Notes: a model not told the origin generated them from the letters alone. 64,000 nt of DNA from Psammoneis japonica (GCA_008632985.1 QPGO01000052.1:62001-126000); one strand, 5' to 3'. Positions 1 through 42,560 are shown, counted from the stretch's first letter. Program-made: numbers and translations.

Positions 1-330
1 GTCATTTCGATCTTGTTGTCTCTAACAATGTTGTCAACTGACTTTCTCGCAACTGCTTGATGTTGCGGATCTTTTGATGTGTGCCATCTTTTTCAATTTT
101 TTGTGCACGCGGCGCGCTGTCACCCGTTTTTTTAATGTCCTGGTCTCCATTGTGGTGCCATGCGATGGTCTGATTGGCAAGGAGGCTCAAGCCGCCCTGC
201 GTCAGCTAGTGGGAAAGATTTCTAACAAGTGGCAGAAAAGCCCTGTTTGGAAGTGTGTGGCTTCTTGTCAACACAAGTGAGATTCAGCATGAGGACTCAA
301 CAAACACAGCACAGATGCAGGCCACACTCT
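1..330 (+). mobile_element. Decayed C-terminal fragment of a non-LTR retrotransposon ORF (restriction-like endonuclease type)
   Basis: IVVPCDGLIGKEAQAALRQLVGKISNKWQK / KPCLEVCGFL resembles the S.DG..G.EA...LK.LA..LS.KW..PYS.V.G.V tail of REL-type LINEs. The fragment is frameshifted. Confidence 0.5.
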
Positions 331-1459
331 TGTGATGCACAAGCATCCAGGACACCAGCCAAATGTGCTGCAGTCAAGCAGCCTCAAATGGTCATGTGTG
401 GCACATCATGCCAGTGCCACAGCAGCAAAGTCAAGTGAGCAATGACACACCACAGAATTGAGCTTGTCCTGTGTTGCACCCAAGAATGATGGAACATTTT
501 TGTGGTGCATGACTTTTTTTGAAGTGCGGCTTGTTTGAAAAATGACTGGTGGCAAATCCAGGGAAAAGCTCTAAAAGTCACACCCACATGCATTTCAGCA
601 AAAGTCAACCTGGGCTCTAAACCTCCTCATTGTGTGTCCAAAGTTTTTCTGCCACAGAGGAGGGGCCAACAAATGGTTTTGCTCAAATGTTGCCATGATT
701 TTTTGGGTGCAGCACAGGATGTGCTGCAAAGAACAAGAGAGGGGACAACCCCCCATCAAAAGCATGAGTTCAGGCATGCAGCAGATGGGCTGGTCTCTGC
801 TGAAAAACCCAACAGGGAGGTTGTTGGCAGTGATGAGAGCTTCTCAAAAGCAGCAACAACAACAACCAGCCCGGTGGCAGCATTGCATGTCATCGTGGTC
901 AACAAACCCTTTTGTTGGATTCCAGTTGACTCCATCTCACAATGAGCATCACACCAAGTCTTCTTCATCTGAGGCAGCAGCAGAGACTTTTTTGTGAGTT
1001 GAATGCCCACCTGTCTTCACGCCAGGAGTTTTTGACACTTGGATGAGTTCAAGTGTCAATTTCCCCCATCAGAAGCCCAGACACAGGCCTCCACACAATC
1101 CAGTGCAAAGTCCATCCATGTTCTTAGTGTGTGCCACACCACATGCATGGCAACATGCTCTCTCATGAGCAGATTGCTGCTTTGTGCTGGAGCTTTAGTG
1201 CACCTTGACACACAGACTTGCAGATCCTTGGTTGAGCAGCTGTGCCTCTGTTCTCTTTGAGATCTTCATGAACATGGAACATTTTGATGACAGCAGGAGC
1301 ATGCATCACATGTCAAATCAACAAAAAAAGACCAGATCCATGTTTTGAGTGCTGTCGCTCCTTTGCCACCAGCTGGGCTGGCGCCAGCTGACCCACACTT
1401 CCAGCACACCATTGATTGTGGCAGAAGCTCATGGGGATCAGCCAGAATGGACATCACCT

Positions 1460-4400
1460 CACAGTGACGCCCCACTGAAATAACCAGCAACAGAGCAAGT
1501 GTCACAAAGCATGGAGTTCTTCATTTTCTTGAGGCTTTCTCTCATGCATGGTTTTGCCACAGCAGTGCAGTTCATTGTCCATGAGGTGGAGTGGGACATG
1601 TGATCTTCCACCAAGTCCAGCAGCACATCTCTGTGAGGTGCTCCTGTTTTTTGTTGCACATTGCCGTGAGTTTGGCTTCCACTTGTTTGCACTGAGATGA
1701 TTTCCTGGTGTCTGCATCACATGACCATGCACCTCTTTGTCATGCTCTTCCCACAACTCCCGCCAGGATTTCCAAGTGCAGGCTCCGATCTGCACTGCCC
1801 AAATGGGAGGTGAGTGATTCTCCTTGTGACACTTTTCCAGCAGTCCTGTGCTGCAAAGATGCATTTCTTGAAAAGTGTTCCAAAGAGTGGAAAAATGATG
1901 GTTGAAAACTCGATGCCAACCCATGTCAGACTGGGCTCTCCACAAAGGACGCAACATTGGGGCAATGTTGTCATTGCATGTCATCTCTCACCTTGAGACC
2001 ATGCTTCAATGGAGGACAAAAGAAGATCACACAACGGGGACATTGTGCTGATGTTGTCACAGAGCTTTTGGAGGCCTTGTGGGAATTTGCAATGCCAGGT
2101 TTCATTGTCAGGGCAGCACAAAATGCAACCCTGATCTTCCCTGGGATGTTTGCAAAAAGGAGATGATGTGGTCTCACTGGATTGCAATGGTGAGTGATCT
2201 TGTTTGCAGGAACAAGAAGCTCATGGATCAATTTGACAGCAGACACATGTTGCTTTGAGAACTGGTGCACCAATGCAGTGTGCATGGACCAGTCTGTTTT
2301 GTCTGTGATTGATTCATCCCATTTGTTCCTTTCCTGAATGTGCACCCAAGCAGAGCAGGAGCGCTGCGCCAGTGTGTCAAACCACAGATTTGAGCCCTGT
2401 GGCAATGGCCCTGTCTTGAACACTCAGGTGGGATTGGCAATGGGGGAGGGGGATCACCTTGGTTGTGTCAGATTTGCACTGGCCTTGATGTCGTCATGTC
2501 AGTGTGTTGGCATGCATGTTGATCTGAGCACCAAGAGGGAGAACTCGACTGGAGAGTGTCTGTCCTGATGTCCTTTCACCCACTCAAGAGCAGGAGCCTG
2601 GGCTGGAGAAAAAGGATTGAGGATTTTTCAATGGCTTGGAAGGTCTGACAAATCTTGTTGATGATGTCCCAATCAGATGACAAGATGTTGGCACCATGCT
2701 TGCACAGTTTAAAATCTGTCTCGGGATGGAGACTTGAGCTGAAGGATCAACGGAAGGACTGCTGTCAGACAATCAGGAGAGAACTTGAACAAGAGCCCTG
2801 TTGTCACACCAGTTGTCAACACCTTTGTAAGATGACATTTTGCAAAATTCAAGCAGACAAAAAACAGAGCGTGTCAGGGACATGAACCCACAGGCCTCTG
2901 CTTGGCACAAAGAAGGCATTCTGTCAAACACCAGTCTGGCACAATCCACCAATGTTCTCCCATCAAATGCAATGGTCCACCCAAATGTCGCTTTCTGTAG
3001 ATGCACAGACCCACCGCTGCCTGCCACAAGGCAATTTGATGCAAAGCAATCCACCAGTTTGAGCGGGGAAACATGGAATTCCATGTCAGAGGACAGGGCA
3101 GACTCCCAGGAAGGCAATGCTTGCAGACAGTCTTTAAAGAACTTGGGGAGAGGAGGAGGTGTTTCCACTGTCAATTTTGACCAATGAGGAAGACATTGCC
3201 ACTGTCCATTGCAGGTGGAGATGATCTCCACTGGGCAAGATGAGTCAGAAGGATCAGGAACCATTTCAATTTGATGCAGGGATGTTGCCACTGTGTCCTG
3301 GGCCAGAAACACATCAAAACTGGATGGAGACCATGCATGCAAATGTGATTCCTTTGGAGACCAACAGGCAGAGGCCTGCATGTGCATCTTGGAAGGAGGC
3401 ACTGACCAATCTCCCAGAGGGGCTTGTAATCTGGTGGAGTCTGGATGACACAACAATTCACACAGGCATGTCCAGGGACCCCATGCTGGATGACAAGGTT
3501 TTGTTCATTCAATGTTGTCAACAGTGCTGACACTGCTCAGGCAAGTTGGATCACTGCAGACCTTAGACTTGTCCAGAAAGCATCCATCTGCCATGGCAAT
3601 GTCCAACACAGTGAGAACCCTGAGACACAGACAGCAATGGTTGATCCGCTGAATCTCTCGGGACAAGAATTCTGAAGACTCCAGAGCAACATGTCCACCA
3701 AGAACTGGTCGTCATCTCATTGCAGAGGTGGGCACCCCATCTTTGTGTCAAATCAACAAAGACATGGACACCCACAAAACAGCCTTCTTGTGCCTCCATT
3801 GGGCATTTGCTGCTGGCAGGAAACCAAGATTGAGCAAGCTCCTCAGCACAAGTCAACTCACACTGGAGCTTTTGGCTGGCCACATTTTCAGCCATCACCA
3901 GCTGCTTCTGTCAATGTCACAATGGTTCTTTGGTGCTGCTCACAAGCAATCTGGCACAGTTGTGAGCAGGCACTCATCTCTCAACTGGTGTTTCTATCAA
4001 GGAAGGCTGGGGGCAAGCCCTTGCTGGCCAAATGCCTTGCTTGAGATCCTGTTCTCAACAGCTGCTGCAGCTGAAAATGGGCTGTTTTTGAGGAAGGTTT
4101 TTTCAGGTGAGCAAAAGGTTCAAGAAGCATTGCTTGCTCATGATTTTGCAAGACAGCAGAGCCAAAAGATGGTTGGCTCAAGGTGCAAATTTGGTGGTGC
4201 TGCAGAAATTGTGGCTTCCATTTTTTTGCAAGGGCTGGACAAGGTTGAGAGTGTGCCTTGAGACACCATTTTCTGGTGTGTGCACATTTGAATTTTTGCA
4301 GGGCGTGCTCTCACAACAAGTTTCGAGCTGTGTTTGGAGACATTGGGCTTGAGCACAAAATGACCAAAAGCAACACAGGTGCTGCTGGGCTGTGTTGTTC
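1460..4400 (-). mobile_element. Decayed LINE-like retrotransposon with RNase H domain
   Basis: RNase H-like motifs GSGGSV..ATFGWTIA, PSLCQAEACGFMS, WCDNRALV (2773-3456) and EWVKGHQD (~2565-2587). It has many stops and frameshifts and is homologous to 27750-29790. Boundaries are approximate. Confidence 0.7.
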
Positions 4401-4933
4401 AACATGAGTGACCTGGAAAATTCTTGGTTGGTTGGCCAGGAGGAGTGGGCTGTTGGTGTTTCTTAACCAAGAAATGATCATGACCAAGGCAAATGGATTT
4501 CTGCATCAAAAAAAGGAGGAAAATAGAGAGGCACCACTTTGAAGATTTGTTGGAAGTCACATGAGATCACACCTCTTGCACTCACTGGTGTGCATGGGGG
4601 CATGCCAAGTGTGCTGTCTCACAACTGTTGCCACAATTCTCTCTTGGTTTCTTGGCCGCACCTTCTGCATGTTTTTCTGTTCAAGCTCTGGCACAAATGT
4701 TGCCTTTCTCTGACAGTGTGACAATGGTTCTCACCTGCCCATTTTGACTGCTTCTCTCATTGACATGCCTTCATTTCATCATCACAAGCAATCTCATGCA
4801 TTGGAAAGTGACTGACATTGAGCTCTTTTGGCTTGTTTGCTTGTCATTCTTCTCCACTCTTCTTGGTGTTTTCTTCCTTGTGTGCCAAGTTATTTTGCAA
4901 ATTCTGCGTGCTTCAAAAGTCATTTCAGATGGT

Positions 4934-5331
4934 CAACTTGGCAAACTTTTGGCTGCGTTCCATCCACACCTCTCAGGTGTCAATGACCCCCCTTCTGCCT
5001 GTTGTCAATTTAAGTTCCCTGCTTCACATGGCAGACAAAAATCTTCCATCATTGCTGCACTCAGAAATTTGAATTTGAAAGAACCAGTTCAGCATGCACT
5101 GACCTTTCTTCCATGTGCCAACAACTTCGCACAAGTTTTGGTGCATGTTCTGTGTGTCTTAAAATTAATTTCAAACAATTGACTTGCCAAACTGTTGACT
5201 GCTCTTTGTCCACACCTCTCAGGTGTCAATGACTCCCCCTCTGCATGCTGTCAGTTTAAGTTTTCTGCCGCCCCCCATGTGGCAAATGAGAATCCTCAAT
5301 CATTGCTGCTCCAAAAAGTCTGAATTTGAGG
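4934..5331. repeat. Imperfect direct repeat, about 150 bp of shared core, period about 247 bp
   Basis: tccacacctctcaggtgtcaatgac..ccc..ctgc...tttaagtt occurs at ~4963 and ~5209. Confidence 0.7.
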
Positions 5332-7989
5332 CTGGCTCAGCATGTGTTGGTGGTTGCTTCATGCCCCACTCTTTCTCATTTTGAAACATTTCCTGACTGT
5401 CTGTTTCACCTTGGCAGCCAAATCTGATCCCAAGAAGAGAGCCTTGATTGCAGCATCAAGTTTTGACATTTCATTCATTTTGCTGGTCCTCTTTTTGCTG
5501 CTGCCAGCTGTTTCCAGTGGGTGCCACAGATTTGCAGTGTCAATCTTGGCCAGCTGCCATGCATCTCTGCCACATTGTGTTGGTGTGCAAGGGGTTTGGG
5601 TTGGCTTGTTGTGTTGCCAGAGTTGCAGGGTGGAAGCACAGCAGCACTGCAAGAGCAGATGGCTTTGGTGTTGAGTTCAATTTTTGCACCATGAGAAAAA
5701 GAACTTCACAACACACACCTTTGCCCACACCCACACACACCATTTCACAGCAACTGCAATGATGAGACTGTCATGATGCACCACTGATGGTCAAAGACTT
5801 CTGCAGAACTTTGACCCACAAAACCCAAGCCTTCCACTAAAGTTGCTGCAAGCAAATGCACATGTTGGTCATTGAGAACAAGTTGGTGCTGAACTTTCAA
5901 AATGTTTCAACAAAGAGGGTGCCACAGCTGCAGCTGCATGTGCTTGTGACAGCTCATTGGAAGTTGATCATGGGCAAAGCATGTTGCTCATTCTGTGGCT
6001 TGCTGCTGTCTCCAAAGTCAACAACCAAGAGATGATTGCCTCAGGAGGCAGCACCCACCCTGACACACAAAATCTGGCAAAAACAGTTGGAAGTTGGAAG
6101 CTGCCCATGCCAGCATGATGGGCAAGGAGCTTCCAGCCTGCTTTCTTCTAACTTCTTGGTGTTGAAGCAAAGACATGAAAGTGCTTGCCCCTCTCAAAAG
6201 ATGCACAAGCCAATGTGATCTCTGGTCATGATGTGCGACTCCTCAATGGCAAAGAACTCTCCCACTCCAGAGCCCAAAAGGACTCAGTGGTTGTTTTGCT
6301 TTGTTGATTTTTCAGGAGATGCTTGAGTCTGCCTTGCTGTGAGCATCAAGATTTGTGAAAGTGGTGACAGTGTTGAATGTTTGCAACATGGATGATGGGC
6401 TTGTTGAGCTGCCAGTGCACTGGACATGAAAAGATCAAGAGCCTTGTGTCTTGCAAAATTTTTAGACTTTTTGGCAGAAACACTGCTGCACAGTCAAATG
6501 ATTGTTTTGTGCTGCTGCCTGCTTGTTGAGCCATGGAAGAAACTTGCTTTAGCTGCTCAGTTGGTTCTTTTGCTCACATGCTCTGGCATGTTTCAACAGA
6601 GCAAAGCACTTGAAAAGTGCAAACGTGGCAGAAGCTGAGCTGCACATCAAATGAGCAACTGCAATGTGAGCACCTTGACACTCCAGCTGCAGAGTGCAAA
6701 ATGTCAGCCACCCAGTTGTGGAGCATGTGAAAAATGTGTCAGATGGCTGTCAACTGTGGTGGACATGATGCTGGGCAGAACAAGAGCTGAATGATCCCTC
6801 ATCTTTTGCACTCTGTTTTTTGTTGAGCACCACATTTGCTGCACACAAGACAGCAAGGCTCTGAGTTTGCAATCTGCTCAAGAAGCAACACCATGAATCC
6901 AATGTGTGATGCACAGCTGCCAAAATGACAGAATTGCTGAGTGTCAAAATTGAAGGACCTTGTTGGCCACTCCTGCACTTCATCAGGGGGGTGACTTTAA
7001 AAACTGGGGCCACTTTTTTAATGCACTGTGCTGCTGGTTTGCCAGGAAAGGAAACCATGCAACAACAAAAATCACATCATTGCCATGACACATGGGAAAC
7101 AAGAAGCAAGAAGATTGAAAGTTGTTGCTGGGTTGCTGTGTTGGCTGGCTGAAAGACATTGGCAGCACCATTGCACTGAACATGGTGCTGAGAAAAACAG
7201 GCACTGAGGGGGGACAATCAATCTGACCTCTTGATGGGACAAAACCAGAAGTGGCCCCACATCTCCAGGCACAACACTCATTCCAGGCACAAACCTCTTC
7301 AAGTGAGACACAGTGGCAACCACCCATTCTGCCAGCTTTCCAAGATGATGTCTGCCCAACTCCCACAGAGGAAGAGACAGAATGGAACAAATGTGAGCAG
7401 GACATTTGACAAAAGAAAAAGATGTCATGGAGCCAGCAAACCAGGGAGAAAGGCAACATTAGAAGCAACAAGCAAGAGCAGGGTTGATGGCAAGACCATG
7501 AAAGCAGCTGTGTCTGTTCTGGGTGGTGCCATGACTGCAACAATGAATCTGCCACCACTCTCCACTCAAGCTGTGCTCTGGAAGTGACTGTGCACATGAT
7601 GGAGCACCAGCACACAACCACGTGCTGCTGCTCAGTGAGCAGACACTTGCCTGAGACAAAGGTTGGGTTTGTGACTAAAACAGAGTGAGTGCATTGTCGT
7701 CTGTTCAGTGTTGGAGCATCTGGAACAAGCAGGAAATGCAAGAGACCCAGAAGCAGATCCATTGAAGAGAAGATGCTTTGGATCCTGATGTGGTGGATCA
7801 GATGACACTTTGGAAATGAATGTGCACTTGTTGCCAATCTCACCAACTTTCTTTTGTCTCACCAACTGGAGTGAATCATCCAGTTTGCACAAATGTTGTG
7901 TGTTGTGGTGTCAGCAGGCAGCACCTCTTGCATGATCACAAGATTGAAGTTCATTGAAAGCTTCCAGGCAAACCACAGCCATCACAGCA

Positions 7990-10400
7990 ACCAAGACATG
8001 GACCCTTGTTGGTTCAACATTCACTCCAAAGAGTCAAGAGCACTGTGTTCAGTGCATGTGGTGCCAACCTCCATTTTGTCATCTGAGTCAGGAAAACTGC
8101 ACTGTGAGTGGCAGAGGAGGAGGTGGAGGAAAGGAGGAGGAGGAGGCCAAGGACACAGCCAAGGCAGGGATGGCAGAGGAAAGAAGTCTTGCTGCAACAA
8201 AAACAAAAAGACTGGTGACCCCAACAAGAGTTTCAAACTGGAAATGAAGTTTCATCCATCATTGATGAACAGCAACTCATGCAATTTGATGGTCAAAGAC
8301 ATCAAGGAAAAGATCATCAACCATGAGCAGAAGGAATGTGATCAAGATGTGCATCTGGCAAGGTCCCTGGAAGACATGGCATGCATGACGTTCACTGGTG
8401 ACAGTCCAACGCTGGTGATGGCAATGCCAGCAGTGCCAGCAGAGACAGGCAAAGATTGCCTGACCAAGGCAAACAAGAGGGCCAGAGAAGAAAGGCAACT
8501 GGAATGTGAGCACAAGATCAAGTTGCAAGACTGTTGTGAGAAAGCAAAGAAGCTCAAAGACAACAGAAGCACTGCACTTGTGGTGATCCCAAAGGATCAC
8601 TGTTCCAAGCTGATGGAGCAGAGAGTGCAAGCTGACCCCAGTCATCAGAGGATCAGAGATGACCCAATGAAGCTGCTGAAGCTGATCCAGTTACTTGTGT
8701 TCAACTCCATGAGAGGTTGAGACCCCTCTTCCACACACTTGCCAACAAGTTCCTGAAGCACACACTGGAAGTGAAACAGCTGGAGGATGAGTCACTGAAT
8801 GTCTTCCTGTCAAGATTTAAGAATCAACGGGGTGCCACAACAAGTGATGGTCTTGACAGCAAAATGTTGGACAGATTTTTTTGTCAAGAATGCCAAGGAG
8901 TGCAAGGACTGCACTGCCACAGCAGATGAGCAAATGCTGAAGGATGCTGCTTTCAAGACATTGACAACACACCTGTTTGTGGATTGTTGCCACAAGAGCC
9001 TCAAAAAGAGCCTTGTGAGAGACTGCAGCCCAGGCAAGGATTCACATCCAAATGCCCTCAAGAAGGCAATGGATGTGTTGCTGAACTGTCCAAAGGATGC
9101 ATGATGATCTGCACAAGGGGTGAAGCAAGAAGAACAACAATGAATGCCCAAAAAACAAGAAAGAAGACAAGGGCGCAATTGCATGCTGCCCAACAGCCTG
9201 CAAGACCAGAGTGATGCACACAGAGTGGCAAAACAGCACGCCATTGTTGTGGTGAGCCAAACTACAAGTCTCCAGACTGCAGGTGCAAGGATGAGATTCC
9301 ACAGAAGGGCTGGTGTAAGAACACCTGTGAGAGATTGGGTGCCAGGGACAGAGTCGCGCACAGAGAGACAATGACAATTCATCAGTGAGCAGTGATGAGG
9401 ACACCAGCGTTGACACCCGCAGGTCAAGTTGATCTGCAAGCTCCAACAGAAGAAACATCACATTGCATGGGTTCCAGTTGGATGAACAGGCACTGAAGAA
9501 GGGCCAGACATGAGTTTGAGCCAAGCTGATGTCAGCATTGAGTCAGATGAGATCATCCTTGACAACAGCTTTGCTCTCTTGGTGTGGCAGCAAGTCAGAA
9601 ACTGGTGCACAATGTGCAACCAGCAAGGATCAAGATTGTCCTTTCTGCCAACACAGGAGTGGATGCTTTGGACAAACTCCACCCTGTGCCAGGATGGGGT
9701 GAGGTGAAGCTCAGATCACAGAATGCAGCAGCTGACATCCTGAGTCTCAAGGATGTGAAGAGCAAGTGCTGCATTGCACATGACAAGAGAGTGGCAGACA
9801 AGCTCCATCTGCTGGATGAGAAGACTGGCAAACAGGTCACAGTGTTCAAAGTTAATGACACCCAGCTGCACACCTTTGCACCAAGCCAGCAATTCTTTGA
9901 CAACACAAAAGAGCTTCAAGAAGGTGAGTCAAATGTGAGCATGCTGTCAAAGGACAAGAAGGTTGCAAAGAAGACAAGCAAAAAGCACAAGAGTGTGTCA
10001 GGAGCTCTTGTTCTGACTGTGAAACAGAGTGTGAAAGGCCACACTAAACAAGAGGCAGCAAATGCTTCTGAGGAAGCATTGAGACTGTGCCATGAGGCTG
10101 GAATGCCCAGTGTGAAAAAATTCAAGCTGTTTTTATGTTCAAACCAGAGGTGAAGAACCTGCCCATTCTCCCTGAAGATGTGGACAGAAAGGCAGCCATG
10201 TGGGGTCCACTGACAGACACACTGAAAGGCAAGACCAAGCATGCACACCATTCCCATGAGAGGAGTGACATCATTGCCATTCCACCTGAGATCTACAAGA
10301 AGCAGAGAGAAGGTGTGACCCTCTGCATTGACTTTGTCGAAGTGTGCAGTGCCAACACACTGCACGCAATTGACAAGAAAATTGACTTGCTTGTCAGTTC
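7990..10400 (+). mobile_element. Decayed Ty1/copia (CoDi-like) LTR retrotransposon: gag, protease, pre-integrase and start of integrase
   Basis: Gag-like LEMKFHP..VKDIKEKIINH..ARSLEDM, protease-like IILDNS (~9552), then ALRLCHEAGMPSVKKFK..NLPILPEDVDR..WGP..LKGKT and integrase start VTLCIDF. The domain order is copia-type and the ORF is frameshifted. Confidence 0.7.
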
Positions 10401-11989
10401 AACATCCAGTGTGGTTGCAGAAACAACATGGCCACCCAAAGCTTCTGCAAGGAGGTGCTGTTTTCCACACAAAACATGCCAAAAAATGCCAGTCCTCACA
10501 TGGCAGCTGGTTTTGCCATCCTGTTGATGTGCCCTGCACCATCTGCCCAATGTTGTTGAACTTGATGTGAAAGCATGATGTTGTGGCATTGAAATGGCAA
10601 GAGTTGCTTTTTTGACCATTGCAATTGTCACCCATGACTGAGCACAAAATCTTCAATTTTTTGGTCACTGCCAACACACATCATTGCACACTGTCACATG
10701 CTCCACCCCACGTCACCTTGGAAGTCATGATGCAGAAATGTGCATTGTGCCTCATTTTCTTGCAGAATTGCCATTTTTCTTGCAAAAGCACAGTGTGGCC
10801 AAGATTTGAGTTGAGTGCAGTTTGGGATCTCATTTTTTCATGTTTTTGGGGGACACTGAGACACAGCTGGAAGTCAAGATTGTGCTGCAATGATCTTTGA
10901 ACTGCCAGTTTGTGAACTCACTTGATGGAGTTTGTGCATTGTGGAGGTTCAGCAGTGCTGTGGAACAGAATTGTGCAGAGCTGTGTGCTGGCACATGTCT
11001 CTCTGAAGTGGGCTGGGGCAGGCATCCTTTTTTTTTTGCAGGTGTGTGTGAGGCACAAGCCACTGGCTGCACGCCCCATTGTCAGAGTCTCAGAGCTGCC
11101 AGAGGCAAGCCATCAAGCACCATCCATTCCACAGGATTCCCCCCCCCCCCCAAGTTTTGTGCTCACAGTTCTCGTTTTGTGTGCCGGTGTCCAGCTTCTC
11201 ATTTTGTCTGTGCATCACGAAGTGTGTGCTTTGCCACATTTTGGGGCCAGGAGGGTGGTCACAGGCGAATCGCACATTTTTCTGCGTTGATGCAATTCAT
11301 GGATTTTCCTGCTCATGTCTTTGGAAAGCAGAGTAAAAGTTAATTACCAGCATTGACATGTACACAATAGATGCCCAATCATTGTTGTTCCCTTCGCAGA
11401 CCTTTTGATGAGCCTCAGTGGGCGGCGCGGACGCCCGGATGGACCGATTGTTCGCAGCCGTCCGTCTTCCAGCCGCGAGAGCCTCCTCTGCTGCACAGAC
11501 GAACACTGCGAAGCGCATGATTGCGTCGCCGAGGGCGGAGGCTCACGGTTAGCTCTAGCTAGTTGGAGAGTGCGCTGCCCAAGGCTACTACTAGAGAAGT
11601 AGCTAGTAGCGAGAGGCCTAGCTAGAGAGTAAACGAGTAGCCGTGACGTGCAGGGAGGGAAAGTGAAATAATGAAGAGTATCAGCCAAGAAACGGCGAAC
11701 CATGGGATCGGCAAGACCGATCGTCGCTGCTCAAACTGTCCCAATAACTTTGCTTTGTGTGTGTGTTTTTAAACCACAATGTGAAAGTGAGGTTGTACAG
11801 CATCGTAATAAATCTATTTCACTCCTAGTAGCTCGAGAGCTGCAAGTACTGGTTTGAATGTACTAGAGAAGCTCATTTTCAACCGCGCGTCCGTGGGTAC
11901 CAAAGAAGCCAAAACCGCGTAAACTTGGAAAACAACGATTCTGGCATCCAAAACCGGTAAACCCTGAAGAAGAGCAATTCTTTATACCC

Positions 11990-14607
11990 CTATACTACTA
12001 CCATTTTGAATCTGATAGTTTCGCTTGTTGCCATTTTGTCAGTGTACACGCCAGTTGCCCCCCACGGCTCCTCGCGCTTTGTTGTAAGGGAGTAATGCGA
12101 ATTTCCCTGGGATTGTTGTAAACGAGAGTGGTCAGCTGGTTCCAGCGATGCTTTTGAGACTCCTGGAAGATCTGTTGACGCCACCATGATGTTCCGTTCG
12201 ACATCTGTAAATCGGAAAGCCCCATGATCTGCCTTGTCTGCCTTCATAAACAGGAAAGGTGAGGAAACTCATTGGCTGCGCGAAGGGGAAAAGGAGTGCT
12301 TCATAATCGCACGTACCAACAAAATAAGGACGTCTCCATCGGTAGCAAAAGACTGGTCCTTTGAATGTTTTACTTCCACATTAGGCAGCCATCCTGGACG
12401 ATACTTGGCTAGAAGATTGCCATGGCCAAGCACGTCATTGACAGCCATTCCAAGAGCACAAGGACCGGAAAGTAGTAATTCTGGCGTGGCCCTCGATTTC
12501 CAGATCTCTGTATCATTGAAACGAGCTGTGAGGCAGATGTCCAATTCAAAATCAAAGACATCGGCGCGATTCAGAATGAATGATACTAGTCGTTCAATGA
12601 GGCGAGCTAGAAACAAATGACCGGGTTCTGTACCAATCAAGCCATTCCATAGGCAGAATTTCTCGTTGGCGTAGTCTGTCACTACGTCAAGTGGTACAAA
12701 AAAAGACATCTCTGGTGTAATGAATGCATCAAGATTAGTATCCAGCTTCACGTCAACGTCAGCATAAACACCTCCATCTCTTAGGAGCACCAGGTAGCGG
12801 AAAAGGTCAGCCTAACGGTCAACACAAAATTCCACCGAGAGTCAGATTTCGTGCAGGGATTAGTAAGATGGACCCCAATTGCAGTCCTTACCTTGTAGGC
12901 TCCCGGAATTAACGCATCGAAAGCATTCACAAATCGAAGCGGATAGTGTTCCACAATGTATTCGCGGGCACTCTCATCGGTGTAGAACCTATAATCCCAG
13001 CCGTGTATTTTCCATGAATTCTGAAGACGCACGAGATCTGGATATCGGTCAAACGTTAGCTCTTCCCAAAAAGTTTGATGGATAATTCTTGGAATCCTTC
13101 CGCCTTCCTTGACTCTTTCATCAAGGGTTTTCGATGGCGGTACCTCTGAAATTTCAATCTCAACCGTCACTTCTTTTCGTTTAAGTCTGTTTGAAACGTC
13201 GCAGAAGAATTCTTTCAATTGGTTGGGACAAACCAATGAACATGCTGAAAAGGACCCGAAATAACGTGCACGAAGACATCGCATGCATAGCCAGCTAGGA
13301 ACGATACCACGTCGTTTCATTGTGTCCTGCATGGATACCTTCCGTTCCCTGACTGGCCGATTTGTGTCTCTTCTTTCCCTTATAGTGACTGTTTTCGTCG
13401 TTTCTTTCGATAGCGATCCTTCAAGATTGAGATGAGTGTCGATAAGACGGGCTTCCAGCGACGCGTATATCATGTTGTTCTCATGACACAGCAAAGTAGT
13501 AGCTCCTCGACTTTTCAAATCATTCCAGTCGTCCTCACTCATAAGCGCGGACTGCAAGTCTGTATGGGAGAAAAGACCATTGCTGTTTTCGAGTTTTTTC
13601 ATGATGCATTTGAGGTACGGGTTTCGCGGAGAAACGGCCAGAAGCAAGAGTTCCGGCTGTCCATGGTTGTTTGCAACGTCCTTAGGGTTCGAACTATCGA
13701 TATGCAGAAACACCATGAGCCCTCGTGAAGCGCAAGACGTCTCCACCCTTGTCAAGTTTTCGGCTTCAATTCCTTTCAAGATTGAAGAAACATGACGAAC
13801 GCGTTGGCCACCAAAGTAGCCTCCGTACTGAAATAAGGCACAAAAGGCCCAAACGTAAAGCCGGTTTTCGACCGAAGCCATTCTGTATGTTTCGGACAAT
13901 CCGCTGCAGTTCTGTGAAACCATCTTTATCATCTCGTCCTCCTCGAAACTAATAGCAGTAATTCCTCTCATAGGCTTTATCCACTGAAGGGGCTGAAGAA
14001 TCACTTTTGGGATTGCGTCTTGCGGTGGGAATAAAAAATGTTGCTCATGACTGACAAGGTTCTCGTCTCTCGAGCGAAAACAGGATTCTTCCCAACTATC
14101 GGCCTGATGCGTAAGATTCTGCAACATGTTGGCCTTTTGCTTATACCTGATGAGCATCTCAACCAACGCTGCCTGTGGAAGCACAGGTGCTTTTCCTCTA
14201 GCCGGCTCCGAAACCGGTGGGAGCTTAATCCCCATTGATTGCAATTTCATTTCCCGCTGCCGCAACGTCGAATGATAGACAAAGCGTCGGATTATTGAAT
14301 CCGTTAGCCTTCCCAACAATCCGCCGCGGATGGAATATGCTGGACCGAATAAAACCTTTCGCAATGGCAAAAGCATCGCAAAAACAACAAGACAAGATAG
14401 TGCGGCTCGATTTCTTTGCTTTCTCAAGGCCAGACACCGCGAAAGCAGAATTGGGGGTGTAAGAGGTCGCTCTATGAAAGATTTAAATTTTTTTCTTCTC
14501 GAATCATCATCACTTCTTGCCATGATTGCCCCTTCTTCAACATCTTTGTGATCATGATTCTCCGTATGGTTGGCAATGGCCACGACTCCTCTTCTTCTGA
14601 TTGACAT
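11990..14607 (-). CDS. DXD glycosyltransferase (GT32 / OCH1-like mannosyltransferase family), type II membrane protein, 3 exons
   Basis: IPRIIHQT and spliced GAYK|ADLFRYLVLLRDGGVYADVD motifs, with an N-terminal hydrophobic anchor. GT-AG introns at 12812-12891 and 12242-12316. Confidence 0.85.
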
Positions 14608-15240
14608 GCTCAGTCCTTCTGATATTTGTTGAACCGAGATTGAAGAAAAGAAGAACGCCACGTCGCTAATTTTGCAAAACAGTGTACTGCTTATTCTGGA
14701 ACATTCATCATGGCTTACTATTGAGCCATAGCCCTAGAATCATCATCGTCGTTTGTTTTCCTTGACTGATGATGGATGAGCGGTGGCTTCAATGGATATC
14801 GATCATTGAATATATATTATCCATTATGATTATACAGGTTTATCTAAATCTATATCAGTTTATATTGATATTCATGTGAGTAAATATTAAAAAAATAAAA
14901 CAGAAAAGATGTTAAAGTACAGTAATTTGCTATGAATCGCAGTACTTAGAATAACACGAAATATTGGTAGTGAATACCGGTATAACGGTGTATAGTATTA
15001 TTTTCAGTGTATGAATACATCCTCCGCCTCCTCCCTCCTTGGTAGTACCGGTAAATTCCTCCTCTCACGCTCTCATGCACATGGCGGCGGGAGACCTTTC
15101 GTTGCGCCGCTGCTGTCTTCGCAAATTGCATCGTATTACCTAACCCTACCATACCATACCCTGTACATGGAAGTATTCTCGCCCCTCTCGTCTTAATTTA
15201 AGACTTCTGCAACAATTAATTTGAGAGAAACGTTGAACTG

Positions 15241-16905
15241 ATGAGCCATAATATGAATATTCCAGTTGTTCAGGGTGTTGCAGTCCCAAGCGAGTCGGGG
15301 TACAGTCATCAACCTGTAACTTCGTCGGCAGATCAGACAAAGACTAGCAACACGTACGGATCAGGTGACAATGTCAATGCTTTCTCAGAACCGCTCACGG
15401 GTGGAGGTGATTACAATGGATACAAGGGTGAGCCGCAGCCCAAGCAATTTCAGGATGTTGCTTTTGCTATCGCCTTTGTCGCACATTTGGTAGTCATGCT
15501 TGTGGTGCTGGTCATGTTTACCGCTAAGAGCGACAATGGCGAAGCAGATGGAAACAGAAATACGTACGGCGGCGTGGCGTGGTGTGTGTCGGTATGTGGG
15601 CTCTTTGCCTTGGCTTTATCTACAGTGACGCTGGGTTTCATGATGAAGTTCGCGCATCAACTGGTGCAAGTGGCGTTGATCTTCAGTGTCATATTCTCCT
15701 TGGTTTTGGGAATAGTGGGTGCGATGATGGGTCAAGCAATGATGGCCATCGCGGGATTTGTCTCCTTTGCTATTGGAATTTGTTATGCCTATTTCGTGTG
15801 GAGACGCACTCCGGTGAGACACGTCGGTGTGACCGATCCTTCTTGCTGGCTTTACAAATTGTTCCGCACGCTTACATCTCTTTGTGCTTATTCGTTGGCA
15901 GTTTGCGGCTACCAATCTTAACACCGCGTTGACTGCTGTCCGTGCAAACATGGGTCTTGCGATAATTGCATATTCATCTCTGGCCCTCGCTTTTGTATGG
16001 TCGCTTGGGTGGTCATCGCAGCGACCAGTGCGTTTGCTTCTGTGGGGGAAGGAGTCATTTTTCTGTTTCTCTTGTCCTACTACTGGACACACCAAGTACT
16101 TCAAAACTCGGTCCATGTCACGGTCGCTGTAAGTCGAAATTCAGCATTGGCAAATCTCTCTGTTGTGTTTTGCTTCTCACCTTTCTATTCCTTTCTCGCC
16201 GATGATGCTACCAAAAAGGGCGTGGTTGGCACGTGGTGGTTCGTTCCCGACGAGGCCTCCAGCTTTTGCTCGAAAGCCATTACCGACTCTTTCTGTCGCG
16301 CTACCACATATTCGTTTGGTTCCATTTGCTTTGGAAGTCTGCTGGTCGCTCTTATCCAGGCCCTTCGCCATTTGCAACATTTGCTCCGAGAAAACGACGA
16401 TTTCAACTTTGTTGTGTGCATCATTGATTGCATTCTTGCGTGCATTCAAGGCATTATTGAATACATCAACAAGTGGGCATATGTTTATGTAGGACTCTAT
16501 GGCTATAGCTACCTCGAGGCAGGACGCAATGTCGTTACGCTATTTCAAAACAAAGGATGGACAACGATCATTACGGATAACCTTGTGGAGAATGTCTTGT
16601 TCATGGTGAGCATTGGTATCGGACTCGTCACTGGGCTAGTGGGACTTGCGATGGGAAGTATCGACGGAGATTTGTTTGCTGGCGTTGGATACGAGGACGG
16701 GGGAGTTGTAGGCTTTGTTGTTGGTCTCTTTGTTGGGTTCTTGTTTGCTACGATTCTCATGAGTGTCGTTGGTAGTGCTACAAACACTGTTATCGTTTGC
16801 TTTGCCGAATCACCCGCAGAATTTCAAGCGAATCACCCCCAACTTAGCGAAGAAATGAGAGCAGCTTGGAGACAAGCGTGGCCCTCCGAGTGCGCGAATC
16901 TCTAA
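15241..16905 (+). CDS. Choline transporter-like (SLC44/CTL/PNS1) protein, paralogue 1, with a 1-nt frameshift at ~16014
   Basis: Motifs HVTVAG..GTWWF, SFGSICFGSLLVA, NKWAYVYVGLYGYSY..AG. Introns at 15814-15901 and 16129-16218. Confidence 0.85.
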
Positions 16906-17314
16906 GTGATCCAGAGATGCAAACATAACTTAGTGTCTTGATTATTCATGTAGTTACAGCTGGTTGGTACTTCCAACCCGCGGTTCTCAGTTCTGTCATT
17001 TATGCTAGTTGTAGCTGGGCTAGCTTTGTGGTTGTGCGTTTTTATTACAGCTTGGGGGTGCACAGTAGGTCCCAGGGCTTACCTTGAAAGTGCAATGATG
17101 TGTGCGCAGCGCACGTGTTGAGTGATCGCATTTCTCTGGAGGCGGCTTCAAGCTGCATGACCACAATTCTGAAGCTTGATACTACGGGAAAGGAAGCATG
17201 AAGGAGCTTACTTTACAAATTTAACAATATCCAGCGTTCATTATGCTAGAGAATCTCTTGAAAGGTACTATTTGTCGGGAAGTAAATCCTGAAGATGCTT
17301 ATGCCGCTTCGATT

Positions 17315-19158
17315 TCAGTCCCTGAATTCATTTGGCCATGCCTGCCGCCAAGTTTCTCTCATACGCGACGAGAGTTCCGGATGATTCGCGTCCAGTTCAG
17401 CAGGGGCTTCTGCATACAAAACGATAACCTATTTGGGGGGAGAAAGAAATACGTCAGAGAAACACCTAACATTGACGAGACAAGCATTTTGAATGGCCCT
17501 CGACATACGGTATTGACTCCACTGCTAACAACACTCATAAGAGTCGAACACAAAACAGCTCCAACCACAAAGCCAACCCTGTAAAGCCGACCACCAAAAA
17601 GAAATGTTTAGAGCTGTTTCGCGACGAGGGAAAGTGAAACATTGAAAATGCACAATCAACTCACGCAAAGGGCGCAGCCGCGTACTGCTGAAGACCGAAT
17701 GCTGCGGTGGAGAGGGCACTCAACGCCCCTGTCAAAACTCCCACGCCCACACTAACCATGGCTAAAACGTTGTCAATCAAATTATCCGTAATAATGGTAG
17801 TCCAACCTCTTTGCTTGAAGAGCGTCATGACGTTGGTACCTGCTGTCATGAAGGAGTAACCGTATATGCCAACATAGACAAAGGCCCATTTGTTGAAATA
17901 CTCTGCGAGCCACTCGATACACCCCAGAAGGCATTCTGCACAGGCCATGAGGAGCCCATCTCCGTTTTCCCGCATTTGACGCACCATCTCCTTGGTTGCT
18001 TGTATGATGGCGACAATGAGACTTCCGAAACAAATGGATCCGAACGAGAAGGTAACAGCGCGACAGAAGGAATCACGGACACTGTAGTAGCAGAACGAAT
18101 AATAAATCCGAGAAAACCATGAGCGGTGAATACATCCAGCAGCTTGTCGACAAAGTCAACTTACCCTTTTGAGCAACAAGAGGACGCTTCTAACGGAACA
18201 AACCACCAAGTACCAACAGTTCCAGCGACAGTTACATGTACCGTGTTGCGAATGACTTGTATAGTCCAATAGTAGGACACCAAGAGAGCAAAGACGACTC
18301 CGCCACTAGTTTCTGACTCGCATTCCCAGTTTCCACTGCATCCACTTGTCACATAGACAATAGAGACACTGGTGACACTCCAAAGAATTGTCCAGCCAAA
18401 GAGAATCAATATCGATGAGTAAGCGAAAAAGGAGAGACCCATATTTGACTTGACTGATGTCAGGGCGGTGACCAGGTTGGCCGCTGCAAAAGGAATACGA
18501 CTCCACACCACATAGGCGTAGTATGCTGAAATAGCAAAGCCGATAAAGCACAGAATAGCTACTGGAAATGCCCCCGTCAACAATGCCAAGACTGCTACCA
18601 AGAAAGAAGTAACAATGTTGAACCTTCAAAGTAGAGAAAACGAATGTAAGCTCCGCTAAGCCGATGAATATGTCGACATGCAATCACACTCAGGAACAAC
18701 AGGATTCCGTACCAGAGAGCAATCTTAATAAGCACTTCGGCAAAAGACATCATGAAGGTGAGCGTCAATGCTGAAACGACAAAGGCTGCCAAAAAGCAAA
18801 TCCCAATGATGGCTGCAATCGCTCCAGGATTCGGTACGCCTTGGTCGTTTTCGTCTCCCTCCAAAACACGTTCACCACCGCCGCCATCAAAATTGTAACC
18901 TTCAGCAACGTTGCTATACATTTGAGGGGCATAAACCGATACCAAGCAAATCATCAAGATCAAATGAGCATAGAATAAGAGTGCAAAACCGACATCATTG
19001 CATCGATTGGGTTGCTTTTCCCCTTTGGTCCATTCGCCTGTCTCATGAGGACCTGACGGAACTGACGTTGACGTTGGTGGCGCATACGGACTTGAAACCA
19101 ATTGGCCCTGAACTACCACTGGCTTGCTACCGTGCGCGTAATACGGCGCTGACGACAT
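17315..19158 (-). CDS. Choline transporter-like (SLC44/CTL/PNS1) protein, paralogue 2, multi-exon
   Basis: RIPFAAANL, HVTVAGTVGTWWF, FNKWAFVYVGIYGYSF and C-terminal HPELSSRMRETWRQAWP. About 4 short introns. Confidence 0.85.
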
Positions 19159-19630
19159 GATTAGGAAGCCACGTTGCTCTCTGGTTGTTGCAGGTACGTA
19201 TGGACACTTTTGGGTTTTGTGCGGCTCCTCATTCACGCCATTTTGGATTTCTCTCCTCAGCTTGGCTCGTTGCCTTTTTGGCGACGCATCTGGTCGTGAT
19301 GATTCGCATACCGCGAACCCTAATTTGAAATATGGTGGTCATTGTCGTAGAATAGACATTTCGATGTGGCGCTTAACGACAAAAAAAGATGTTATACATC
19401 TTACAACATGTAGAAAGAATATTGACGCGCAATAAGCGCTGCGCGCGCGCAGCCTTGCCATTTGCCATGCACGCAAGCCATCACCGCACCGCACCACGCA
19501 CAGGCAGGCCATCGCATCACAATCGATCGCATCAGACCCAAAAAACTACTTGCACTTCATTAACATCATTGAACATCGCTCGACGACATCATGATATATA
19601 AGCTCTTCTGTGAACTACAAAGTGAGGAGA

Positions 19631-20188
19631 ATGAGTCATGGAGGAGAGATACCTTCTTCAGCTGCTGCTGAAAAACAAGAAGCAGAGGAATCATCCATAA
19701 GTCTCGGATCGGTTTTTCCCCGGTCGAAAATCAAGGCTCACGTGCTACGAGACGAGGGAGTGGGAAGATTATCAAACAACGCGGTTGACTACATTGGAGC
19801 TTGCTCTGCAGCCTTTTGCCAAAAGTTGATTCGGGACTCTCTGACAAATGATGAGAAAGCATCCAAGGTGCTGACTCTGGAAATGGTTCAGGCCTGTGTT
19901 GGCAAGAAGGATGACTATGATTTCCTCCGAGAGTCAGTCTCAGCAATAGTCGATGATGCGGCGCCCAAGGTAGACTGGCAAAAGACAAAACGCAAACGAG
20001 CGCCTCGCAAAGAAAAAGGTTCGGGAGCAAAGAAGGGTAAAACGAACGATATTGCAAAATCTATCATTCAAAACACAAACGATGTGATAGCTGCAAACGA
20101 GCCTGCCATTCAAAAGGCGATCGCACGTGCTCAGCAAGAACCTCTAGAGCGCGGTGGCATTGTGTTGGACCAAGATGAATACGACTGA
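19631..20188 (+). CDS. Histone-fold protein (NC2-alpha/DRAP1 / NF-YC / DPB3-like)
   Basis: FPRSKIKAHVLRDEGVGRLSNNAVDYIGACSAAFCQKLI...YDFL matches the H2A-like histone-fold pattern FP..RIK.I...D..VG......I....E.F...L. Confidence 0.7.
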   Translation: MSHGGEIPSSAAAEKQEAEESSISLGSVFPRSKIKAHVLRDEGVGRLSNNAVDYIGACSAAFCQKLIRDSLTNDEKASKVLTLEMVQACVGKKDDYDFLRESVSAIVDDAAPKVDWQKTKRKRAPRKEKGSGAKKGKTNDIAKSIIQNTNDVIAANEPAIQKAIARAQQEPLERGGIVLDQDEYD

Positions 20189-20322
20189 CAAAGGACAATC
20201 AATGGCAACTAACGTTAATGTCTAACACACAATAGAGGAACGCACTTGATAGACTCTCCTTCGGGAGTACAGAAGGATCGTGAACTTTCCATCAGAGCAA
20301 ACCTCCCCACAATGACACAGCT

Positions 20323-22172
20323 TTACACACTACCGGGATAAATACTCTGGTAAGCATCTCTCATCTGCTGGGAGAGTTCAGGGTAGTTTTGCTCGAACTC
20401 GGCTGGCGCCTCGGCAAAAAGTACCTGCAAAAAGGAAAAGAGTTAGAAGCTGGAGAAAAGTGAAACGAACGACAACTTCAATGGCACCTACAATCGTGGC
20501 GTTAACTCCACTTCCGATAGTACTCATTAGAATACTGCAGAGAGCCAAACCAACGACGAATCCAAGGCTATCAACAACAAACACAGATGTTAGAGCGCGT
20601 GGCTTGATAGCAATAGTTCACAAGACAGTTTATGCAACGTACAGAAAGGCAACGAGTTGCGAGTTTCCAGCCGCCGTCTTGAAAGTGTCAGAGGAAGTCT
20701 CTAGAATCAGACCAACACAGCCCGACAATCCACCCACAACCACGCTGACCAAAAAGAGCGTGTTACCAACAAGGTCGTCCGCAATGACAGCCTCCCATCC
20801 GCGGTTCTTAAAGAGGGTAAATACATTCTTGCCAGCTTCGAGATAGCTGTATCCGTAGAGTCCGACGTAAATGAATGCCTAAAGAGAGTAAGCGGTACGA
20901 ATTTAGACATTGATAGGTGAGAAAAATAGTAACGTAACAGATACGCAGCAGTTTGCCACGCAGTTCAAACCGCCAACTTACCCATTTGTTGAAATACTCA
21001 ACAAGGTTTGCAAGGCAGGCAAGAATGCACTCAGCAATACAAACCAGGATTCCTCCGTCATCGTTAGCCCTCGCGGAACTTGCTAGGGCACGAAGAGCTT
21101 CAATAACTGCAACTAAAAGCGAACCAAAACAAATGGATCCAAACGACGTAGTCATGGTTCTTTCCCAAATCAGATAAGAGCATGATATGGGTTAGGAAGG
21201 GATACGAGAAGCTACAATTCAATATACAGGACTTAGGGAACTTACCGGCAAAAGCTGTCCGACACAGCGGAGGAGCAACAGCTTTGGCTTTCTTCCGGAG
21301 CAAACCACCACGTTCCCAAAACGCCAGCGACATTGACATGAACACAGTTCTGAGAGAGACAAGAACACAAGTTCATAAGTGATTACATCAAATGCATCAT
21401 AACAAGCATGAAATACAACACATACCTGGATGACTTGGTGGGTGAAGTAGAAAGCCACAAAGAGCAAGAATAGGTAGCCGTAGTTGGTGCTGCAGTTGGT
21501 GCCGAACTCATCACATGTATAGGTTCGATCCCAGACGCCCATGAATGCAATGGACCACAAGAAACTCCAGCCAAACGCAAGAATACCAAAGATGTATGCA
21601 ACAAGGGTAATGCCGCAATTGCTCTTGATGGCGGTGGATGACGTGACGAGATTCGCCGTAGCAAACGGAATGCGCGGCCAAACCGCCCGAGCATAACAAA
21701 TGCCAACCAAGAAGAAGACAGCACCGATGATGCCCCAGAAATACTGTCCAGCAACAAAGGCGAGCGCTGCCCACACCCCCGACAGAGCCACGACGAAAAT
21801 GAGCGACATCTTGACGAGCGTCTCAGGAATCTTCATCATGACCCACAGCATAAAGGCCGAAAACACCAACGAACTTGCGCCGGTGACCAAAACCGTGTAA
21901 ACGTACGGCTCATAATTCTGTCCCGAGTTGTTGGTATCTTCTGATTCAAGTGCATCTGGGCCGTAGATTGCTGCAACGGCAATAATAGCGGCAAGGTTGA
22001 AGTAGAGCAGAATGGCGAAAATTGGGTCGCGGCACTTTGTCTCCTGTTTTTCGCCCGTGGTGAAAGTACCGGACTGAACTGGCTGATCAGTTGGAGGAGG
22101 CGCAGAGGCAGCCGGCTGCCCACCGTAGGGGCTTGCCACAGCAGTGCCTTGAACAACAACGGGTTCTCCCAT
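20323..22172 (-). CDS. Choline transporter-like (SLC44/CTL/PNS1) protein, paralogue 3, multi-exon
   Basis: KCRDPIFAILL, RIPFATANL, TTSFGSICFGSLLVA, YFNKW and C-terminal YPELSQQMRDAY. About 5 short introns. Confidence 0.85.
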
Positions 22173-22635
22173 GGTTCCTCTAAAGTAGTCTTAGGTCGTA
22201 AAACGTAAAACTTGAAGAGACACGGGAATGCTGTCGATGCATGCAATGGCGGCAGTTGAGTTGTGTGTTGAGTCACGCTCCATTCTCACACCCCTGACCA
22301 GGGCGAATTGTCACAATCACACATGAACGACCCTGGTCATCAGAGGGATCTCCGGTCGTGTCTTGATGAGGGTATTGAGCGTCGGGCGACAGACAGAGCG
22401 GTGTCAGGCGCAAAACGCCGACATCCGCCATGGGCCATGGCGGCGATTTGAGAGCCCACGGGAAGGCAAGCAACATCATGACTAGCACCCATGTGGCATT
22501 GTTCTCGATTGAGGAACATTTTGACCTCATCTTCAAGACATTGCATGTGATGCAGAGCACAGAGTGCAGCGCATCCCTGCTGGACTGTGCACGGCGCGAG
22601 TGTGTGATGAGACCAGCCCTTCTTTTGAAGAAGCA

Positions 22636-29790: not shown

Positions 29791-29829
29791 TCTGACGGCT
29801 GCTGAGAAGAGAGTGTTGACCATCAACTC

Positions 29830-38922: not shown

Positions 38923-38924
38923 AT

Positions 38925-42523: not shown

Positions 42524-42560
42524 GCACCTACTCTACGAGATGTGCAACTACTATACCTGT

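Follow-up and report, generated by a model that had tools for sequence, protein, structure and literature searches.

Flank-dependent TpA erasure paired with CpG loss in three sharply bounded blocks of a diatom-like genome

The stretch of DNA considered here, referred to below as the window, comprises 64,000 nucleotides of one strand of Psammoneis japonica (GCA_008632985.1 QPGO01000052.1:62001-126000), and all positions are counted from its first letter. In this 64-kb window, gene islands alternate with three blocks, A, B and C, in which the dinucleotides TpA and CpG are nearly absent. The three blocks make up about half of the window and are silent, partly repetitive DNA. The reading proposed in the present study, which is held to be cautiously probable, is a near-complete erasure by two separable dinucleotide-specific transition processes, the TpA part of which depends on the flanking bases at the level of the duplex. 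The blocks, and the islands that served as the control, are as follows.

1-11300, unstranded: block A, TpA- and CpG-erased, with 2-6 TA and 2-14 CG per kb
22701-41000, unstranded: block B, TpA- and CpG-erased, a mix of single-copy and multi-copy segments
57001-61100, unstranded: block C, the most depleted block, with 4 TpA across 4.1 kb
11300-22300, 41600-56900 and 61600-64000, unstranded: gene islands 1, 2 and 3 (control)

The blocks contain 0-8 TA and 0-15 CG per kb and the islands 30-64 TA and 40-71 CG, and within block C the subregion 58001-60000 has zero TA. The strand-symmetrised ratios of observed to expected counts (O/E) in the blocks are 0.05 for TA, 0.10 for CG and 1.86 for TG/CA, with the remaining dinucleotides at 0.82-1.24, and the corresponding values in the islands are 0.57, 0.98 and 1.14. 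The AA ratio is 1.19 in the blocks and 1.15 in the islands, and CA and GA are likewise undepleted, which indicates that the loss is specific to TpA. The initial annotation of this DNA had remarked that AA runs are not depleted and that a general WA (W, A or T) signature of polymerase eta, A>G at AA and TA, fits less well for that reason; both statements hold, and the polymerase eta signature is rejected on the AA ratios. The GC content is equal in blocks and islands (0.46-0.50). If island-like ancestry of the blocks is presupposed, their TA and CG deficit of about 86 per kb is close to their TG and CA excess of about 90 per kb, both given as summed per-kb class counts. The limits of the domains are sharp, since at 11300 TA climbs from 0 to 5-9 per 100 bp over a distance of 100-300 bp, and the other edges are similar. 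The TG-versus-CA skew in the blocks reaches about ±0.2 at most in 500-bp windows. Since TAA and TAG have been lost, the sole remaining stop in the blocks is TGA, and spurious long open reading frames (ORFs) of up to 291 amino acids result on both strands.

The direction of change can be read from conserved codons and from repeat copies, for which the following features are needed.

40907-41500, minus strand: Ran-like GTPase pseudogene (Pfam Ras, 4.5e-15; solved Ran structures, best 8.7e-28)
8013-10332, plus strand: decayed copy of a repeat-borne protein family of about 700 amino acids (tblastn of 70 family members, colinear)
24219-24812, minus strand: second decayed copy of the same family (tblastn of 70 family members)
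38220-38926, unstranded: repeat copy 81% identical to 60507-61222 (self-BLAST), a pair used in the CA/TG discordance count

A tyrosine codon, TAY (Y, pyrimidine; R, purine), becomes His when it changes to CAY and Cys when it changes to TGY. The polarised set, drawn from the Ran-like pseudogene and the repeat-borne ORF family, comprises 14 conserved Tyr codons that now read 9 His and 5 Cys. In the pseudogene, the conserved Tyr residues are now Cys and Cys (gac tgc tgc), His (acc cac), His (ccc cac) and His (aac cac). In the repeat-borne family, Tyr is kept in 0 of 28 Tyr-majority columns; 12 of these columns are now His or Cys, and nine of the 12 were entered in the count. As regards the strand that carried the change, the columns in 8337-9869, at 24332 and in the Ran-like gene give 9 His, where the coding-strand T changed, to 5 Cys. 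This could be a mild bias related to the coding strand, in a sample too small to judge.

Alignments of repeat copies within the blocks contain 91 dinucleotide positions where CA is aligned with TG, along with 556 concordant ones, in a count where overlapping alignments of tandem units enter more than once. Separate resolution of an ancestral TA or CG in each copy would be expected to leave double differences of this sort. Adjacent double differences, CA in the window and TG in a contig of run X1, also occur at 24469-24470 and 39934-39935, where, as expected, they fit alleles or paralogues that resolved an ancestral TA or CG independently. In the run X1 contigs, CA stands at three of the window's residual TAs. 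Taken together, the Tyr codons, the discordance of repeat copies and the run X1 contigs indicate a change of TA (and CG) to TG/CA and speak against an original absence of TA. The TpA-confined T:A>C:G change is read from end states, not from newly observed mutations.

The same comparisons bear on a technical explanation, in which modified bases were miscalled as TG or CA in a long-read assembly while TA and CG are truly present. Miscalling would suit the self-complementarity that the two missing dinucleotides share with typical modification sites, as well as the domain-wide extent of the losses, and no sequencing platform is on record for either the assembly or run X1. However, the run X1 contigs cover block B at about 99.5% agreement, with about 107 differing places in 20 kb where some 1700 (86 per kb) would be expected, although run X1 is possibly the source sample of the window assembly and not fully independent of it. 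One example contig of 2432 letters differs from the window in 5. Besides, the decay of the block ORFs and of the Ran-like gene takes many forms other than TA and CG changes, and repeat copies read CA and TG at one and the same site. An artefact of this kind is hardly credible.

The TpA sites that remain in the blocks have strongly biased flanks. Block A retains 39, of which 27 are YTAR (TTAA 12, CTAA 8, TTAG 6, CTAG 1), 6 are YTAY, 6 are RTAR and none is RTAY. A manual scan in the initial annotation (about 35-40 sites in this block, two thirds YTAR, one third YTAY or RTAR, no RTAY) agrees closely with this count. With YTAY and RTAR taken together as half-sites, block B has 78 sites (47 YTAR, 31 half-sites, no RTAY), and block C has 4 (2 YTAR, 2 YTAY, no RTAY). 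The sum over the three blocks is 121 sites, namely 76 YTAR, 23 YTAY, 22 RTAR and 0 RTAY, where a first-order Markov model built on the dinucleotides of the blocks predicts 38.8 YTAR, 59.5 half-sites and 22.7 RTAY. The probability of 0 RTAY in 121 is 1.1e-11, and for block A alone (0 in 39) it is 3e-4. The result is the same in the block cores (1500-10300, 24000-40300 and 57600-60200, with edges trimmed by about 0.6-1.5 kb), where 97 sites comprise 60 YTAR, 37 half-sites and no RTAY (17.8 expected). The trend in the islands is opposite: their 1114 TpA sites include 183 YTAR, 615 half-sites and 316 RTAY. The comparison of NTAN tetramers between blocks and islands, which the initial annotation had proposed, therefore reveals a depletion that is non-uniform over flanks (RTAY 0/121 versus 316/1114).

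The bias extends further outwards. T at position -2, or its equivalent at +2 on the other strand, occupies 123 of 242 flanks, where 78.2 would be expected (P=3e-9), and the residual sites have the consensus look T-Y-TA-R-A. The fitted flank factors are 0.33 for A, 0.53 for G, 1.23 for C and 1.60 for T. A model with independent flanks fits the 16 NTAN counts (deviance 13.2, 12 degrees of freedom, P=0.35), with RTAY somewhat more deeply depleted than it predicts (0 versus 4.2, P=0.015). Per kb of blocks, the residual trinucleotides are TAA 1.80, TAG 1.13, TAC 0.42 and TAT 0.25, and the loss of GTAC and GTAT in the blocks is complete. ADAR-type editing copied into DNA via double-stranded RNA was considered and rejected on this order, TAG being kept better than TAC and TAT, and on the full loss of GTAC and GTAT. 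The residual CpG sites of the block cores have a flank trend opposite to that of TpA (RCGY 41, with 34.0 expected; YCGR 22, with 26.3 expected).

The two losses do not end at the same places. At four of the five block edges, the TpA-erased domain outreaches the CpG-erased domain by about 260-490 bp, which leaves the following zones.

11073-11333, 22207-22660, 40946-41431 and 56555-56993, unstranded: fringe zones, TpA erased and CpG kept

The four zones, 1640 bp in total, contain 5 TA and 86 CG. When the edges are defined by CpG only, TA per kb over the distance from 0 to 2.5 kb runs 13.6, 26.4, 32.0, 28.8, 32.4 and 43.1, and CG is steady at 52-69 per kb over the same distance. The TpA process and the CpG process are separable and have different boundaries. 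The Ran-like pseudogene, which has a frame shift between its P-loop part and the rest, is situated at the edge of block B inside a fringe; it keeps many CpGs, and TA is absent in 40946-41431. Exactly at the other edge of block B, at 22636-23187, three tandem 184-bp units are 98-99% identical, and each retains the same GTAA site and two CpGs; this duplication is young or homogenised and later than the erasure.

The initial annotation had explained the flank pattern by a mutator with a T-A-Y preference. In this explanation, a TadA- or ADAT-like deaminase edits A in single-stranded 5'-T-A-Y-3', the two strands are independent, and survival tracks the number of TAY targets (0, 1 or 2). The survival order, with YTAR above half-sites and half-sites above RTAY, the fit of independent flanks and the order of the residual trinucleotides from TAA to TAT all accord with it. 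In the blocks, the TGY excess (TGC +16.7 and TGT +13.5 per kb) is greater than the TGR excess (TGG +8.9 and TGA +5.3 per kb), as the T-A-Y explanation would have it. A 5' T beside the edited A also fits, the loss being confined to TpA. Furthermore, an ADAT2-like adenine deaminase is favoured, according to the main text of a preprint on the alga Bigelowiella natans, by its authors (Mettrop et al., bioRxiv 10.64898/2026.01.13.699255).

The identity of the products disagrees with single-strand editing. A YTAY site carries its one TAY on the top strand, and T-A-Y editing consequently predicts YTGY only. Tyr codons are suited to this comparison, as they are always TAY and free of confounding by CpG decay. 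When the preceding base is taken as unchanged, the pyrimidine-preceded Tyr codons have become His in five cases (8598, 8991, 24332 and, in the Ran-like gene, acc cac and aac cac) and Cys in two (the gac tgc tgc of the Ran-like gene), and the probability of at most 2 Cys in 7 is 0.005 under an expectation of 80% Cys. Weaker columns contribute 2 further His and 1 further Cys at pyrimidine-preceded Tyr, and the purine-preceded Tyr codons have given 4 His and 3 Cys. In the fringe zones, where the half-site products are unconfounded by CpG decay, YTGY and RCAR number 89 and YCAY and RTGR 78. This is close to the symmetric expectation of about 85 versus 74, and the strict T-A-Y expectation of about 102 versus 57 is rejected (P=0.006). 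Two independent TAY targets would also leave 4.2 RTAY where there are 0, the context stretches to -2/+2, and the TGY excess in the block cores is confounded by TG derived from CpG. T-A-Y editing of single strands is quite improbable on this evidence. The part of the original proposal that stands is a flank-dependent TpA mutator, to which RTAY is the most and YTAR the least sensitive; the part that does not is T-A-Y on the edited strand, in view of the YTAY Tyr codons. It seems, from small samples, that the flanks set the hit rate of the duplex site and not which strand changes. A strand preference derived from the balance of blocks minus islands was dropped, as T-A-Y editing and an asymmetric Y-C-G decay fit that balance equally when island-like ancestry is assumed.

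The known adenosine deaminases offer a partial likeness. TadA edits the A in a U-A-C-G loop, and ADAR favours a 3' G and disfavours a 5' G. TadA and ADAT2-3, the TadA base editors and ADAR all convert A to I, which is read as A>G, with a 5' T or U preferred. However, such enzymes recognise the flanking bases of the strand that they edit, whereas the product of YTAY is not set here by the 3' pyrimidine, and the 3' G preference of ADAR is opposite to the pattern found, with TAG among the best survivors. We know of no natural adenosine deaminase that erases TpA from duplex chromosomal DNA. No deaminase was found among seven island ORFs scanned against Pfam, most island ORFs being unscanned. The 5' U preference of ADAR is also stated in the main text of the B. 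natans preprint (10.64898/2026.01.13.699255).

Another explanation of the flanks is that the residual TAs are not survivors. A flank-blind TpA mutator would have erased essentially all ancestral TpA, and the present sites would be young products of C>T changes with a 5' pyrimidine, Y-C-A giving Y-T-A or, on the other strand, T-G-R giving T-A-R. Such a rule is of a dipyrimidine or ultraviolet (UV) type, UV damage preferring dipyrimidines, and RTAY would never be made. It predicts exactly 0 RTAY, where destruction with independent flanks predicts 4.2, and from the block precursors (tetramer sums of 892.5 each for YCAR and YTGR and 819 each for YCAY and RTGR) a ratio of YTAR to half-sites of about 52:48, compared with 63:37 observed. 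Among single CA/TA differences between repeat copies, 10 of 12 have a 5' Y, and TA is mostly unshared between copies (3 TA/TA pairs versus 13 pairs of TA with CA or TG). The three residual TAs that are CA in run X1 and the lean of residual CpG towards RCGY over YCGR would follow as well, and a bias of Y-C to Y-T would also fit the asymmetry of the block products.

What creation does not account for is the composition of zones where the loss of TA is partial. At less than 500 bp from the CpG-defined edges, the ratio of RTAY to YTAR is 7:14, and at 1-2.5 kb it is 81:49 (Fisher P=0.017). Between 56000 and 57000, RTAY makes up 0 of 16 TA (P=0.005), and this interval includes the following zone.

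56000-56554, unstranded: selective-loss zone, TA density near normal, RTAY gone

In this zone, there are 0 RTAY where island rates predict 6.4, and RTGY and RCAY together number 21 versus 14.9 expected, an excess that balances the missing RTAY, with half-site and YTAR TAs near expectation. RTAY is thus already missing where the loss of TA is partial, a result that creation cannot yield, and the flank-dependent destruction of TpA, with RTAY lost first, is supported as real. Creation gives no account either of the T/A preference at -2/+2 on the purine-flank side of RTAR (79% T versus 54% background, n=28). Moreover, C/T differences between repeat copies that have a 3' pyrimidine display no excess of 5' Y (60/669 versus 53/518). 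This rules out an APOBEC-like T-C rule and is still compatible with a UV-type rule, to which the test is blind, since a 3' pyrimidine also forms a dipyrimidine. As the whole explanation, creation bias is unlikely, if worth keeping in view, and creation may contribute to the residual TAs in the block cores.

As to the content of the blocks, the word depth of run X1 has a baseline of about 62 (60-80 over parts) and rises to 200-2600 over 24669-25335, 27337-28003 and 32673-38675, about 10- to 40-fold above baseline. The blocks mix high-copy repeats with stretches that are single-copy at a likeness of at least 90%. One of these deep stretches includes a tandem array, and three transporter genes lie in island 1.

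35629-36686, unstranded: tandem array with a unit of about 192 bp (Tandem Repeats Finder, 35629-36141, period 192, 2.7 copies; self-BLAST to 36686, 70-75% identity)
15241-16905, plus strand: choline-transporter-like gene, first of three tandem paralogues, each apparently split by 1-2 short introns
17661-19236, minus strand: second choline-transporter-like paralogue
20808-22172, minus strand: third choline-transporter-like paralogue

The word depth over the 192-bp array is up to 2595. The ORF at 7875-8717 has 66 unnamed homologues at E<=1e-3, the best at 1.5e-12, from metagenome and assembly collections. Nine homologues of the repeat-borne family were tested without a match to any Pfam family, and the family may represent a mobile-element protein of diatoms. 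A guess of Ty1/copia for 7.9-10.5 kb is unsupported, given a homologous family without a Pfam domain in 9 members. Among 295 block ORFs (all 145 of at least 90 amino acids and 150 of the 199 of 60-89 amino acids), none matched a Pfam family at <=1e-3; those of at least 90 amino acids gave one weak HCR match, whose E value of 0.0077 falls short of the cut-off for that family. A permissive Pfam scan (E<=10) of 15 long block ORFs gave chance-level matches only, and Rfam and tRNA scans of the whole window returned no matches. The targets in the blocks show no viral hallmark, and single-copy stretches and the host-type Ran pseudogene are affected. The islands contain ordinary eukaryotic genes with few introns, including the three choline-transporter-like paralogues, a WW-repeat protein and an IGHMBP2-type helicase followed by R3H. 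All named relatives of the transporter are diatoms, at about 50% identity, and the helicase search gave unnamed matches at up to 68% identity and oomycetes at about 50%.

Several known systems resemble a part of this pattern. Decay of CpG by deamination of 5-methylcytosine, as in vertebrates, plants and many protist repeats, likewise turns a self-complementary dinucleotide into TG/CA in silent DNA on either strand, so that the copies end up as TG or CA at random. Such decay is the simplest account of the CpG half of the block signature, in keeping with the CpG ratio of 0.10 and the matching gain of TG/CA, methylation itself being unreadable from sequence. The loss of TpA, in contrast, needs a change of an A:T pair, beyond cytosine methylation, and its domain is wider than that of CpG by about 450 bp. 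Fungal repeat-induced point mutation (RIP) also ruins repeats by dinucleotide-context transitions and leaves compositional blocks between gene islands. However, RIP turns CpA into TpA, so that TpA goes up and GC down, whereas TpA is depleted 20-fold here with GC unchanged, which rules RIP out. In addition, RIP is homology-dependent, whereas segments at single-copy depth (at a likeness of at least 90%) are affected here. APOBEC and AID enzymes provide a likeness in the host-driven, context-specific transition hypermutation of foreign sequences; unlike the pattern at TpA, with its small TG-versus-CA skew, they target C (in TC or WRC), typically in strand-biased clusters.

The nearest parallel is B. 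natans. As described in the main text of the preprint (10.64898/2026.01.13.699255), of 231 de novo mutations that arose in two regions of integrated viral DNA in mutation-accumulation lines, 230 were A>G or T>C, all those changes lay at TpA, and the rate was about 1000 times the background. The targets were integrated DNA of nucleocytoplasmic large DNA viruses (NCLDV) and virophages, the long-term signature in 124 genomic clusters is low TpA with high CpA and TpG, and an ADAT2-like adenine deaminase is proposed (10.64898/2026.01.13.699255). The likeness to the window is an almost exclusive T:A>C:G change at TpA that yields TpG/CpA and is sharply bounded beside normal DNA. On the other hand, the lineage is a diatom-like stramenopile here and a rhizarian (chlorarachniophyte) there, and the TA ratio is 0.05 here, which is near complete loss, compared with a Rho of 0.45 reported for the NCLDV region of B. 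natans. The erasure of TpA is coupled here to erasure of CpG, and the de novo rate was measured there, whereas the end state alone is read here. The phenomenon belongs with TpA hypermutation of the B. natans type, in a new lineage, where it is almost saturated and accompanied by erasure of CpG. The words 'trinucleotide', 'context', 'flanking' and 'CpG' are absent from the main text of the preprint, and its supplementary mutation Table S2 may hold data on flanks (10.64898/2026.01.13.699255). In the literature searched, neither TpA erasure in diatoms nor its flanking context is described, and the flank rule of TpA loss appears to be new.

The proposed erasure by two processes can be outlined as follows. 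A hypermutation of TpA to TpG/CpA and a separate decay of CpG to TpG/CpA, the latter presumably via cytosine methylation, would together have driven the blocks almost to completion. R-T-A-Y sites would be destroyed fastest, sites with one favourable flank at an intermediate rate and Y-T-A-R sites most slowly, especially those with T at -2 and A at +2; the fastest destruction of R-T-A-Y would explain why the residual TpA of the blocks is entirely without that context. The flanks would act on the double-stranded site, and a favourable flank would not decide which T:A pair changes. What the data show is the depletion with its direction and sharp limits, the flank pattern and, in a small sample, the failure of the strand to determine the product at Tyr codons. 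The agent may be an enzyme that works on double-stranded chromatin DNA, an adenine deaminase acting on the palindromic duplex site being one candidate and decay of a base modification laid symmetrically at TpA another. The process is presumably aimed at silenced or foreign DNA.

A number of points weigh against this reading. The whole analysis concerns a single 64-kb window, and the block-versus-island balances presuppose an island-like ancestral state of the blocks. There is no fringe at the edge at 61579, and the edge-zone test is significant at only about 0.02. The polarised Tyr sample is small, with 7 informative codons and a preceding base assumed unchanged. The counts as a whole do not reject independent flanks, and the residual TAs may be largely new and not survivors. 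In the block cores, YTGY and RCAR exceed YCAY and RTGR by about 24 per kb (about 7 per kb in the islands), as T-A-Y editing predicts; this excess can be put down to an asymmetric decay of CpG or to the composition of the ancestral sequence, sources that are inseparable here. Neither an enzyme nor a base modification nor ongoing mutation was observed in this material.

A more far-reaching suggestion, and a distinctly unlikely one, is that TpA in the silent chromatin of this diatom, and perhaps of algae of the stramenopile-alveolate-rhizarian (SAR) group generally, carries a symmetric modification maintained through replication, whose writer reads duplex R-T-A-Y. N6-methyladenine or a modified thymine may serve as examples. 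If so, decay or misreading of the modification on either strand would give TpG/CpA, an A:T counterpart of the decay of methylated CpG with its own slightly wider domain, and the flank rule would be the recognition sequence of the modification writer, not of a deaminase.

TpA-directed hypermutation has so far been reported in a single preprint, on one rhizarian alga, where the enzyme is a proposed one. Its end state in a diatom-like genome suggests that many ecologically dominant algae may share the process and that half of a chromosome region can be remodelled by it, with TAA and TAG stops removed, TG/CA doubled and repeats made unrecognisable. The flank rule provides a testable fingerprint, in which RTAY is lost first and YTAR last, above all with T-rich 5' and A-rich 3' flanks, and the product strand appears independent of the flanks; it speaks against a simple TadA-like reader of single strands. 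The differing boundaries of TpA and CpG loss, in turn, offer a handle on how each process is targeted.

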